Shown here one piece after another: positions 1-4,231 of a stretch of 4,231 bases of DNA; the first letter of the stretch is position 1; each line of letters opens with the position of its first letter. The translations under genes were made by a program, and so were the position numbers. The stretch comes from a virus (Duplodnaviria > Heunggongvirae > Uroviricota > Caudoviricetes). Location of the stretch: the IMG/VR virus record IMGVR_UViG_2713896789_000012; one strand, 5' to 3'. Below the pieces are notes generated by a model. That model had not been told where the DNA came from, searched no databases, and worked only from the letters and a program-made list of their open reading frames with translations.

Positions 1-498
1 TCAAAAAAACACGGTGTTTTCCGGGTGCTGCCGGTAAAAGGCGCATCTGTCTATGGCAAGCCGGTGATCACCATGCCAAAAACCCGCAATCAGCGGGGCG
101 TGTATCTGTGTGAAGTGGGGACGGACACCGCAAAAGAAATTCTCTATGCCCGTATGAAAGCCGATCCCACGCCTGCGGATGAAGCCACGTCGTATGCCAT
201 CCGTTTTCCTGATGATCCGGAGATTTTTTCGCAGACAGAGGCGCAGCAACTGGTGGCGGAGGAGCTGGTGGAGAAGTGGGAAAAAGGAAAGATGCGTCTG
301 TTGTGGGATAACAAAAAGCGGCGTAACGAAGCGCTGGACTGCCTGGTGTATGCCTACGCGGCATTACGTGTGTCTGTGCAACGCTGGCAGCTTGATCTGG
401 CTGTACTGGCAAAATCCCGGGAAGAAGAGACGACCCGGCCAACCCTGAAAGAACTGGCAGCGAAGCTGTCCGGAGGAGTGAATGGTTACAGTCGCTGA
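1..498 (+). CDS. A: Terminase large subunit, C-terminal fragment (5' end outside the window); lambda gpA-like
   Basis: Frame 1 is open from position 1 to TGA at 496-498. The translation (...KMRLLWDNKKRRNEALDCLVYAYAALRVSVQRWQLDLAVLAKS...) resembles the lambda gpA C-terminus as I recall it. It sits immediately upstream of a gpW-like gene, as in lambda. Confidence 0.85.
   Translation, partial: SKKHGVFRVLPVKGASVYGKPVITMPKTRNQRGVYLCEVGTDTAKEILYARMKADPTPADEATSYAIRFPDDPEIFSQTEAQQLVAEELVEKWEKGKMRLLWDNKKRRNEALDCLVYAYAALRVSVQRWQLDLAVLAKSREEETTRPTLKELAAKLSGGVNGYSR
472..477 (+). promoter_or_regulatory. Shine-Dalgarno for the W-like gene, embedded in the terminase 3' end
   Basis: GGAGGA lies 5 nt upstream of ATG 482. 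Confidence 0.6.
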
Positions 499-688
499 AC
501 TGCAGGCGCTGCGTCAGGCGCGCCTTGATTTATTAACCGGTAAACGGGTGGTGTCTGTCCAGAAAGATGGTCGCAGAATTGAATATACGGCGGCTTCTCT
601 GGATGAGCTTAACCGTGCGATCAATGATGCGGAGTCGGTACTGGGGACAACCCGCCGTCGCCGTCGTCCGCTGGGAGTGAGGTTATGA
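482..688 (+). CDS. W: Head completion / head-tail joining protein, lambda gpW-like (68 aa)
   Basis: ATG at 482 is preceded by GGAGG (472-476). The 68-aa product (..LTGKRVVSVQKDGRRIEYTAASLDEL..) is the same length as lambda gpW and shares its central GKRV-x-VQKDGRR motif. Its start overlaps the terminase stop by 17 nt and its stop overlaps the portal ATG. Confidence 0.85.
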   Translation: MVTVAELQALRQARLDLLTGKRVVSVQKDGRRIEYTAASLDELNRAINDAESVLGTTRRRRRPLGVRL

Positions 689-2270
689 AACGAACGCCTG
701 TCCTGATTGATGTGAACGGCGTTCCGCTTCGGGAGAGTCTCAGCTACCACGGGGGCGGTGCAGGATTTGGCGGGCAAATGGCGGAGTGGTTGCCACCGGC
801 GCAGAGTGCCGATGCGGCCCTGCTGCCCGCGTTGCGTCTGGGGAATGCCCGTGCAGATGATCTGGTACGCAATAACGGGATAGCGGCTAATGCGGTGGCC
901 CTGCATAAGGATCATATTGTCGGGCATATGTTTCTTATCAGCTACCGTCCGAACTGGCGCTGGCTGGGGATGCGGGAGACTGCGGCAAAAAGTTTTGTCG
1001 ATGAGGTGGAGGCGGCCTGGTCGGAATACGCAGAAGGGATGTTTGGCGAGATCGACGTGGAAGGGAAACGCACGTTCACGGAATTTATCCGTGAAGGTGT
1101 GGGCGTTCATGCCTTTAACGGCGAAATCTTTGTGCAGCCGGTCTGGGATACGGAAACCACGCAGTTATTCCGCACGCGTTTTAAAGCCGTGAGTCCGAAA
1201 CGGGTGGACACGCCAGGACACGGTATCGGGAATCGTTTTCTGCGGGCCGGGGTGGAGGTCGATCGATATGGCCGTGCCGTTGCGTACCATATCTGTGAGG
1301 ATGATTTTCCTCGCTCCTGGAGTGGACGATGGGAACGGATCCCGCGTGAACTTCCCACCGGGCGTCCGGCCATGCTGCATATTTTCGAGCCGGTGGAGGA
1401 CGGGCAGACCCGTGGGGCCAATCAGTTTTACAGCGTTATGGAACGGCTGAAGATGCTGGATTCCCTGCAGGCAACACAGCTTCAGTCGGCCATTGTTAAA
1501 GCCATGTATGCAGCGACGATTGAAAGTGAACTTGATACCGAAAAGGCCTTTGAATATATCGCGGGGGCACCGCAGGGTCAGCAGGATAATCCGCTTATTA
1601 ATATTCTGGAGAAGTTCTCCAGCTGGTATGACACGAATCATGTGACGCTGGGCGGTGTCAAAATTCCGCACCTTTTCCCCGGGGATGATCTGAAACTGCA
1701 GACCGCGCAGGATTCAGACAATGGATTTTCGGCGCTTGAACAGGCGCTGCTGCGGTATATCGCCGCCGGTCTTGGCGTTTCCTACGAACAGTTGTCCCGT
1801 GATTACTCGAAGGTCAGTTATTCAAGTGCCCGCGCCTCCGCCAATGAGTCGTGGCGCTATTTTATGGGACGACGAAAATTTATTGCAGCCCGGCTGGCCA
1901 CGCAGATGTTTTCCTGCTGGCTGGAAGAGGCACTTCTTCGGGGGATTATCCGTCCGCCACGGGCACGTTTTGATTTTTATCAGGCGCGTTCAGCCTGGTC
2001 GCGGGCAGAGTGGATTGGCGCAGGAAGAATGGCCATTGACGGGCTCAAGGAGGTCCAGGAATCAGTGATGCGCATTGAGGCCGGACTGAGCACGTATGAG
2101 AAAGAGCTGGCGCTGATGGGAGAGGATTATCAGGACATTTTCCGCCAGCAGGTCAGGGAATCCGCAGAGCGGGAAAAAGCCGGACTCTCACGTCCGGTGT
2201 GGATAGCACAGGCGTATCAGCAGCAGATAGCGGAGAGCCGCAGGCCGGAAGAGGAGACAACACCACGTGA
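685..2270 (+). CDS. B: Portal protein, lambda gpB-like; 3' end runs into the N run at 2271
   Basis: ATG at 685 lies in an ATGA overlap with the W stop. About 528 codons are open before the gap. Long stretches match lambda gpB as recalled (YHGGGxGFGGQ, GNARADDLVRNNG, FEPVEDGQTRGAN-FYSVME, LQSAIVKAMYAATIESELDT, LLRYIAAGLGVSYEQLSR, WIGxGRMAIDGLKEVQE, EAGLSTYEKE). The stop codon is not observed; the 2321..2343 extension in the ORF track is read-through across N and is not reliable. Confidence 0.93.
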
Positions 2271-2320
2271 NNNNNNNNNNNNNNNNNNNNNNNNNNNNNN
2301 NNNNNNNNNNNNNNNNNNNN
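2271..2320. other. Assembly gap 1 (50 N) at the portal 3' end / protease 5' end junction
   Basis: Run of exactly 50 n characters. The portal stop and the protease start codon are not visible on either side. Confidence 0.95.
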
Positions 2321-3468
2321 GACGAGTACATGGCCGGAGGTAAACGACCGGCCCGTGTTTACCGGGTGGTGAACGGTATTGCGGTACTGCCGGTGACCGG
2401 CACGCTGGTGCACCGGCTGGGTGGTATGCGGCCATTTTCCGGAATGACAGGCTATGACGGCATTGTTGCCTGTCTTCAGCAGGCAATGGCGGACACCTCT
2501 GTCCGGGGCGTACTGCTGGATATTGACAGTCCGGGCGGGCAGGCCGCCGGTGCGTTTGACTGCGCTGACATGATTTACCGCCTCCGGCAGCAGAAGCCGG
2601 TCTGGGCACTGTGNNNNNNNNNNNNNNNNNNNNNNNNNNNNNNNNNNNNNNNNNNNNNNNNNNGGAGTGGATATCACGCTGATTTATGCCGGGGCGCATA
2701 AGGTGGATGGCAATCAGTTTGAAGCCTTACCGGCAGAGGTGTGTCAGGACATGCAGCAGCGTATTGATGCGGCGCACCGGATGTTTGCCGAAAAAGTGGC
2801 GATGTATACGGGGCTGTCTGTGGAAGCTGTCACGGGGACAGAGGCTGCCGTTTTTGAAGGTCAGTCCGGTATTGAGGCCGGGCTGGCGGATGAGTTAATC
2901 AATGCGTCGGATGCCATCAGCGTGATGGCTGCGGCGCTGAACACACATGATACAGGAGGCACTATGCCGCAATTAACTGCAACNNNNNNNNNNNNNNNNN
3001 NNNNNNNNNNNNNNNNNNNNNNNNNNNNNNNNNCTTGCCACGATGCTGGCAGGACAACAGGGCATGAGCGTTGAACAGGCCCGGGCGATTCTGGCTGCGG
3101 CAGCACCACAGCAGCCGGTGGCATCCGCGCAGAGTGAAGCCGATCGCATTATGGCGTGTGAAGAAGCTAAAGGTCGTGAACAACTGGCGGCAACGCTGGC
3201 GGCGATGCCGGATATGACGGTGGAAAAAGCCCGCCCGATCCTGGCTGCTTCACCGCAGGCGGATGCCGGACCCTCACTCCGTGATCAGATTATGGCTCTG
3301 GATGAGGCAAAAGGGGCTGAGGCGCAGGCTGAAAAACTGGCGGCCTGCCCGGGAATGANNNNNNNNNNNNNNNNNNNNNNNNNNNNNNNNNNNNNNNNNN
3401 NNNNNNNNGTGCCACAGACGTCAGCAGACGGTGATGCGGACGTGAAAATGCTCATGGCCATGCCATGA
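2321..3468 (+). CDS. C: Prohead maturation protease (S49/ClpP-like, lambda gpC-like) with C-terminal scaffold domain; start codon unresolved, interrupted by four N runs
   Basis: Segments 2321-2613 (..VVNGIAVLPVTGTLV..FSGMTGYDGIV..GVLLDIDSPGGQAAGAFDCADMIYRLRQQKPVWAL) and 2664-2983 (GVDITLIYAGAHKVDGN..EAAVFEGQSGIEAGLADELIN..) match lambda gpC as recalled. Segments 3034-3358 and 3409-3468 continue into a scaffold-like tail ending at TGA 3466-3468. The reading frame differs between segments, consistent with placeholder gaps. Confidence 0.85.
2614..2663. other. Assembly gap 2 (50 N) inside the protease core
   Basis: Run of exactly 50 n. The flanking protein segments (..KPVWAL | GVDITLIY..) are separated by about 46 residues in lambda gpC as recalled, so the true missing length is probably near 138 nt; the frame also changes across the gap. 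Confidence 0.9.
2954..2959 (+). promoter_or_regulatory. Internal Shine-Dalgarno for the nested Nu3-like scaffold start
   Basis: AGGAGG lies 4 nt upstream of in-frame ATG 2964, inside the protease coding sequence. Confidence 0.5.
2964..3468 (+). CDS. Nu3: Putative nested scaffolding protein (lambda Nu3-like), in-frame internal start within the protease gene; interrupted by N runs
   Basis: A strong internal Shine-Dalgarno AGGAGG (2954-2959) precedes ATG 2964 (..TGGTMPQLTA..), at the position corresponding to where lambda Nu3 initiates inside C as I recall it (..SGGRMTKETQ..). The downstream region is Ala/Gln/Glu-rich and helical-looking. The frame relationship across the gap at 2984-3033 cannot be verified. 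Confidence 0.55.
2984..3033. other. Assembly gap 3 (50 N) near the start of the scaffold domain
   Basis: Run of exactly 50 n, 18 nt downstream of the putative Nu3-like start codon; the frame changes across the gap. Confidence 0.9.
3034..3358 (+). repeat. Degenerate tandem repeat (about 140-150 nt, roughly 47-50 aa per unit, about 2.5 copies visible) within the scaffold domain
   Basis: Protein level: ..GMSVEQARAILAAAAPQQ..ADRIMACEEAKGREQLAATLAA / MPDMTVEKARPILAASPQAD..RDQIMALDEAKGAEAQAEKLAA / CPGM[gap]. DNA level: ggcatgagcgttgaacaggcccgggcgattctggctgc (3061) versus gatatgacggtggaaaaagcccgcccgatcctggctgc (3211), with the next unit beginning near 3352. Both ends of the array abut N runs. Confidence 0.7.
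3359..3408. other. Assembly gap 4 (50 N) inside the scaffold repeat region
   Basis: Run of exactly 50 n interrupting the third copy of the scaffold repeat. Confidence 0.9.
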
Positions 3469-3488
3469 AGCCAGTGCTGACCATCAAT

Positions 3489-3494
3489 AGGAGG
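3489..3494 (+). promoter_or_regulatory. Shine-Dalgarno for the D-like gene
   Basis: AGGAGG lies 10 nt upstream of ATG 3505. Confidence 0.7.
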
Positions 3495-3504
3495 TTTTAA
3501 CAAT

Positions 3505-3956
3505 ATGGTGACGAAAACCATCACTGAACAACGTGCAGAAGTACGTATTTTTGCCGGTAATGATCCGGCTCATACCGCCACAGGCAGCAGCGGGATTTCT
3601 CAGGCAACACCGGCACTGACGCCCCTGATGCTGGANNNNNNNNNNNNNNNNNNNNNNNNNNNNNNNNNNNNNNNNNNNNNNNNNNAGGCAGCAGCGGGAT
3701 TTCTCAGGCAACACCGGCACTGACGCCCCTGATGCTGGATGAAGCCAGCGGGAAACTGGTGGTCTGGGACGGACAGAAAGCCGGTAGTGCGGCTGGCATA
3801 CTGGTACTGCCGCTTGAAGGCACAGAGACGGTGCTGACGTATTACAAGTCGGGGACCTTTGCGACGGAGGCAATCCGCTGGCCTGAAAGTGTGGATGAAC
3901 ACAAAAAGGCCAACGCCTTTGTCGGCACAGCCCTGAGTCACGCGGCGCTGCCGTAA
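3505..3956 (+). CDS. D: Head decoration protein, lambda gpD-like; as given, interrupted by a 50-N run plus a 54-nt duplicated flank
   Basis: AGGAGG (3489-3494) lies 10 nt upstream of ATG 3505. The N-terminal part (..NDPAHTATGSSGISQATPALTPLMLD) and C-terminal part (EASGKLVVWDG..YYKSGTF..WPE..AFVGTA..) match lambda gpD as recalled. Deleting positions 3636-3739 restores a single in-frame 115-codon ORF ending at TAA 3954-3956; lambda gpD is 110 aa. Confidence 0.88.
3582..3739 (+). repeat. Perfect 54-nt direct duplication flanking gap 5; most likely an unmerged contig overlap
   Basis: aggcagcagcgggatttctcaggcaacaccggcactgacgcccctgatgctgga occurs at 3582-3635 and again at 3686-3739. Both copies encode GSSGISQATPALTPLML(D) of the D-like protein in different frames, and collapsing them restores the ORF. 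Confidence 0.85.
3636..3685. other. Assembly gap 5 (50 N) inside the decoration-protein gene, flanked by identical 54-nt sequences
   Basis: Run of exactly 50 n. The 54 nt before it (3582-3635) and after it (3686-3739) are identical. Confidence 0.95.
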
Positions 3957-3963
3957 CACGTTA

Positions 3964-3985
3964 TCAGGCCACCGCGTTGGCCTGA
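3964..3985 (+). other. Intergenic stem-loop between the D-like and E-like genes
   Basis: tCAGGCC-accgcgtt-GGCCTGa forms a perfect 6-7 bp GC-rich stem with an 8-nt loop, 8 nt after the D stop and about 30 nt before the E start. There is no downstream U-tract, so it is unlikely to be a strong intrinsic terminator. Confidence 0.35.
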
Positions 3986-4013
3986 CTGATTTCTGAATGA
4001 AAGGAACTGATTT

Positions 4014-4231
4014 ATGGGATTGTTTACGACCCGCCAGTTACTCGGTTATACCGAACAAAAAGTGAAATTTCGTGCGCTGTTTCTGGAACTGTTTTTCCGC
4101 CGTACGGTGAATTTCCACACCGAAGAGGTGATGCTGGACAAAATTACCGGAAAAACGCCGGTGGCAGCCTATGTCTCCCCGGTTGTTGAAGGAAAAGTGC
4201 TGCGTCATCGTGGTGGTGAAACCCGCGTGTT
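4014..4231 (+). CDS. E: Major capsid protein, lambda gpE-like, N-terminal fragment (3' end outside the window)
   Basis: AAGGAA (4001-4006) precedes ATG 4014. The translation (MGLFTTRQLLGYTEQKVKFRALFLELFFRR..AAYVSPVVEGKVLRHRGGE) parallels the lambda gpE N-terminus as recalled (..TTAQLL..EQKFKFDPLFLRLFFRE..ALYVSPIVSGEVIRSRGG). It lies directly downstream of the D-like gene. Confidence 0.9.
   Translation, partial: MGLFTTRQLLGYTEQKVKFRALFLELFFRRTVNFHTEEVMLDKITGKTPVAAYVSPVVEGKVLRHRGGETRV

Follow-up and report, generated by a model that had tools for sequence, protein, structure and literature searches.

The window analysed here, that is, the whole stretch of 4,231 nt drawn from a Caudoviricetes record in IMG/VR (IMGVR_UViG_2713896789_000012), carries a head module of the phage 21-like (lambdoid) type. 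As a whole, it matches prophage head modules of this type in 1,943 of 5,426 complete Escherichia coli genomes, with an identity of up to 99.6%, and 21 phage records match its 3' part, among them those of phage 21 (96.8%) and PhiR5_1 (99.2%). The order of genes is the same in the window and in the annotated references, running from the terminase large subunit through W, portal, S49 peptidase/scaffold (C/Nu3) and D/shp to E, and phage lambda likewise has W, portal B, C/Nu3, D and E in this order. The decoration gene, D/shp, is listed in two parts in Table 1, together with the duplicated stretch and the filler that separate them.

Table 1. Genes, called segments and repeat copies of the window, with their positions in the references E. 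coli 89-3156 (L001) and E. coli N51 (L007)
Feature	Window	Strand	L001	L007	Remarks
Terminase large subunit gene, 3' end	1..498	+	49-1998		window base 1 = L001 1501
gpW-like head-tail joining protein gene	482..688	+	CDS 1982-2188		ORF, 68 aa; WP_000259002.1
Portal gene	685..2270	+	CDS 2185-3777		contig 1 ends at L001 3770
S49 peptidase/scaffold gene (lambda C/Nu3, phage 21 genes 5/6)	2267..3468	+	CDS 3767-5272		N runs 1-4 inside
Decoration gene, 5' part (phage 21 shp / lambda D homologue)	3505..3635	+			codons 1-43 and two bases of codon 44
Decoration gene, 3' part	3740..3956	+			last base of codon 44 to stop codon 3954-3956
Major capsid gene, 5' part (lambda E / phage 21 gene 7)	4014..4231	+	CDS 5714-6742		runs off the window
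Segment 1	1-2270		1501-3770
Segment 2	2321-2613		3941-4233
Segment 3	2664-2983		4370-4689
Segment 4	3034-3358		4763-5087
Segment 5	3409-3635		5213-5439	4501-4727
Segment 6	3686-4231		5386-5931	4674-5219
Copy 1 of the 54-nt overlap	3582..3635	+	5386-5439	4674-4727	3' end of contig 3409-3635; decoration protein residues ~26-44, GSSGISQATPALTPLML and the first two bases of the Asp44 codon
50-N filler between overlapping contigs	3636..3685	.			true distance -54 nt
Copy 2 of the 54-nt overlap	3686..3739	+	5386-5439	4674-4727	5' end of contig 3686-4231; redundant with copy 1, same reference bases

The called sequence is interrupted by five runs of N (2271-2320, 2614-2663, 2984-3033, 3359-3408 and 3636-3685), each exactly 50 positions long, and the six called segments that they leave were placed on the complete genomes of E. 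coli 89-3156 and N51. Identity is 100% between segments 2 to 5 and both 89-3156 and N51, as it is between segment 6 and N51 or phage PhiR5_1. By this placement on complete genomes, the true distances at N runs 1 to 5 are +170, +136, +73, +125 and -54 nt, the last of these meaning that the fifth and sixth contigs, both 100% identical in N51, overlap there by exactly 54 nt. Thus, one constant run of 50 Ns stands for distances that vary from -54 to +170 nt, and the runs are fixed fillers rather than measured gaps, just as an earlier note on this DNA had claimed. The flanks of the other four runs have no suffix/prefix overlap of 8 nt or more.

The gaps also affect how the neighbouring genes are read. 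The last 7 nt of the portal gene, stop codon included, are lost in gap 1, which hides both this stop and the overlap between the portal gene and the start of the S49 peptidase gene; because the stop is hidden, the 552-aa ORF at 685..2343 is a false read-through. Further downstream, the sequence missing at gap 4 (3359-3408; L007 4376-4500) belongs to the C-terminal part of the C/Nu3-type scaffold gene and has 27% polymorphic sites, compared with 9% for the head module overall among 12 reference prophages.

At the fifth N run, a self-comparison of the window aligns 3582-3635 with 3686-3739 at 54 of 54 positions. No direct repeat in the window ranks higher than this pair, whose copies start 104 positions apart. 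The first copy stops at the last called base before the run, and the second begins at the first base after it. Only about 2.4e-26 exact pairs of 54 nt are expected by chance among the 3,981 called bases, hence the pair is not a chance match. Since 104 mod 3 equals 2, the copies do not share an absolute frame, and yet, when each is read in its own ORF, both give GSSGISQATPALTPLML(D). The earlier note had drawn attention to the identity of the two stretches and to the peptide that they share in different frames, and on both points our comparison agrees with it.

Two ORFs are listed at this place, one of 72 aa that runs into X residues (3505..3723) and one of 74 aa (3732..3956). With 3636-3739 removed, a single ORF of 348 nt is obtained, made up of the 115 continuous codons that the earlier note had predicted and a stop codon. 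The protein encoded by this collapsed ORF is 100% identical to WP_000256795.1 (E. coli N51 and strain 48) and to XSB41321.1 (phage PhiR5_1), and it differs at 2 residues from the decoration protein of 89-3156. In a collection of 15 billion proteins, the exact 115-aa sequence occurs on at least 1000 contigs under the name 'head decoration protein [Escherichia coli]'. Moreover, the decoration gene is 348 nt long and lies between the S49 peptidase and major capsid genes in 12 of 12 fetched references.

Comparison with the gpD family, which had been suggested as a check on the collapsed ORF, gives a full-length and ungapped match. The collapsed protein aligns with the crystallised phage 21 SHP (PDB 1TD3) over residues 1-115 of both proteins with an E-value of 1.8e-67, and it matches Pfam PF02924 (HDPD) with 83.8 bits against a cut-off of 29.1, its residues 5-110 covering positions 1-114 of the 116 in the profile. 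SHP (GenBank M81255 shp; PDB 1TD0, 1TD3 and 1TD4) is likewise 115 aa long and identical to the collapsed protein at 107 of 115 residues, the 8 differences all being point substitutions, such as QA versus SP at positions 33-34. In phage 21, too, the decoration gene (shp) follows the protease/scaffold genes 5/6 and precedes the major capsid gene 7. Lambda gpD (PF02924; PDB 1C5E, 1VD0 and 7VII) belongs to the same family but is more distant than SHP, with an E-value of about 1e-29 over residues ~17-110 and the N-terminal ~16 residues unaligned.

Proteins of the SHP/gpD family are trimeric cement proteins that bind the expanded lambda-type capsid and stabilise the DNA-filled head. By homology, given its 93% identity to the crystallised SHP, the collapsed product would form a trimer at the threefold sites of the expanded capsid and would stabilise the DNA-filled head in the same way. 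As the collapsed ORF is identical to annotated 115-aa proteins and colinear with SHP, the proposal that the locus holds an intact decoration gene, and that the split into two ORFs is an artefact, is borne out. We therefore hold with great confidence that the locus is an ordinary, intact and well-known shp/gpD gene of the phage 21 type, and that its split comes from a 54-nt overlap between contigs that was never merged.

Nevertheless, a direct repeat next to an assembly gap could in principle be real. One may argue that the decoration gene carries a genuine in-frame tandem duplication of 54 nt, giving a protein of 133 aa with GSSGISQATPALTPLML twice, or two copies around a short spacer, which the assembler failed to resolve. 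The length of 54 is a multiple of 3, so that a direct copy keeps the frame, and a real repeat of length k-1 would be expected to give the same picture in a de Bruijn graph, the left contig ending and the right contig starting with the repeat. If this were true, the duplication of 18 residues, or the insertion flanked by repeats, would mean that the length of this capsid-cementing protein varies in nature, through a change in its N-terminal region. This reading leads to a junction in the DNA of the form ...CTGATGCTGGA then AGGCAGCAGC..., and 64-mers over the hypothetical tandem junction and over the collapsed junction (3635|3740) were searched under identical settings. The collapsed junction, which serves as the positive control, occurs at 2,530 places in 1,579 complete E. 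coli records, whereas the tandem junction has no match in the 5,426 complete E. coli genomes and none in 50,697 phage records (E <= 1e-10).

Other lines of evidence point in the same direction. The 54-mer is present once each in L001, L002 and L007. All 15 of the phage matches listed span 719 nt of the reference, which equals 823 minus 104, as do all 38 full-length matches among rows taken at even intervals from the ranked list of 1,917 E. coli records. At the protein level, the SHP-type decoration protein is strictly 115 aa in every relative examined, and among about 15 billion proteins there is none with the 133-aa sequence that a direct tandem copy would encode. The earlier note had named a gpD homologue with the 18-residue peptide twice as the finding that would speak against its reading; none was seen, the 133-aa form being absent and the reference genes all being 348 nt long. 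In addition, N51 matches both contigs at 100% and carries them as contiguous sequence, and the length of a real repeat would have to match the overlap length of the assembler exactly. Taken with these results, a genuine duplication is exceedingly improbable.

A different question is whether one prophage is the source of both contigs. In E. coli genomes that carry the module, it is found at a median of 2 places and at up to 6, and contigs 3409-3635 and 3686-4231 might thus derive from two co-resident phage 21-like prophages, in which case the collapsed gene would be chimeric while the gene of each prophage would be intact. The best references of the contigs do differ: contig 1 (1-2270) is 99.56% identical to 89-3156 and 98.1% to N51, whereas contig 6 (3686-4231) is 100% identical to N51 and PhiR5_1 and 99.08% to 89-3156. 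However, contigs 2 to 6 are all 100% identical to one N51 prophage, and the collapsed protein is an exact and very common natural sequence; therefore, no chimera is needed to explain the gene, and we regard a join between two prophages as very unlikely. Because the module is often multi-copy, sequence alone cannot prove that the two contigs share one prophage. The differing best references may reflect ordinary lambdoid mosaicism or contigs strung together from different co-resident prophages, and in either case the decoration gene is not genuinely split.

Direct repeats that flank a gap are also known as the mark of an insertion sequence (IS) in short-read assemblies, and the signature at the fifth N run resembles it. 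A mobile element such as an IS could have entered the decoration gene, the 54-nt repeat being its target-site duplication and the element itself having been replaced by Ns. However, bacterial IS elements and transposons typically duplicate 2-14 bp of their target, compared with 54 bp here. At the other four N runs, 73-170 nt are simply missing and nothing is duplicated, so the gaps in this window reflect fragmentation rather than insertions. Furthermore, none of the complete genomes sampled carries additional sequence here. The probability that an inserted element lies here is, in our view, close to nil.

An unmerged contig overlap, the preferred reading, belongs to a known class of artefact, namely reference-ordered draft scaffolds with fixed N fillers in which overlapping contigs were left unmerged. 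These likewise show an exact duplicate abutting an N run on both sides, N runs of one length that bear no relation to the true distances, and a single copy in complete genomes. We propose that the window is a scaffold of six short contigs from the head module of a phage 21-type (lambdoid) prophage of E. coli. The contigs were ordered, most likely against a reference, and joined by a constant 50 Ns whatever the real distance. At four joins, sequence is truly missing; at the fifth, the 54-nt overlap was left unmerged and is hence shown twice. The 104 spurious positions (50 Ns and 54 nt) that this puts into the decoration gene shift the frame and produce the apparent pair of ORFs. An ordering step that adds 50 Ns with no check for overlap between neighbours would give the pattern observed. 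A search pattern for this junction (22 nt, 50 Ns and 23 nt) had no hit in viral_contigs, genome_contigs or metagenome_contigs, and a control on the window itself showed that an N in the pattern does match an N in the target.

As for the cause of the fragmentation, a multi-copy module of near-repeats is probably what short-read assemblers broke up. The shortness of the middle contigs (227-325 nt) suggests that the assembly was severely fragmented. Many 'partial' decoration proteins in the same protein cluster come from contigs of 0.4-4 kb, and such an abundance of partial proteins on contigs below 5 kb indicates that the locus is often fragmented in draft assemblies. Three unrelated ENA/NCBI contigs of 703-807 nt (L004, L005 and L006) start at the equivalent of window positions 3730-3732 and give the same 74-aa partial product; like other draft contigs, they have this gene at their ends, as it often is in draft assemblies. 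Their shared start is probably a selection effect of an exact-match look-up on genes at contig edges, and the start of the 74-aa ORF as a biological start site or a breakpoint hotspot was set aside for this reason.

Internal repeats were considered as another cause of the breaks. The GenBank record of phage 21 describes three 'Tri boxes' of ~105-115 nt in scaffold gene 6 (window ~3008-3402; L003 1025-1419), and gaps 3 and 4 lie inside Tri1 and Tri3. The matching 2.3 kb of N51 contains no direct repeat of 18 nt or more, and the boxes were rejected as the cause.

The length of the overlap may say something about the assembler. In several de Bruijn graph assemblers, adjacent contigs share k-1 or k bases, and it is possible that the 54 nt are a k-1 overlap at k=55; that 54 equals 55-1 is compatible with the k-1 model at a common odd k, although the agreement is weak and not specific. 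Among 12 aligned references, which do not include the copies of the source genome, 3 of 10 sites next to contig boundaries are polymorphic, compared with a background of 9%. Polymorphisms at the branch points beside the overlap, which are expected for this class of artefact, are seen in none of these 12 references: both sites directly flanking the 54-mer are invariant, and the nearest variants lie 3 nt away on each side.

In summary, the apparent split and duplication of the decoration gene is an assembly artefact with no biological novelty. A gene caller run on the record would report a split or frameshifted decoration gene and a prophage head module that looks defective. Genuine decay of this module looks unlike the artefact in the window: in EDL933 (E. 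coli O157:H7; L009 4302-4565), a truncated major capsid pseudogene is fused to tail genes, and in PEC240 (L008 6545-8204), gpU carries an insertion of the IS3 family. More generally, the 50-N runs in this record hold no distance information, and ORFs, frames and lengths that cross them are unreliable. The value of the finding is thus practical, as an annotation warning for the record, and it has no bearing on biology: the genes in the underlying DNA are almost certainly intact, and its decoration gene is an ordinary and extremely common one of the phage 21 type.
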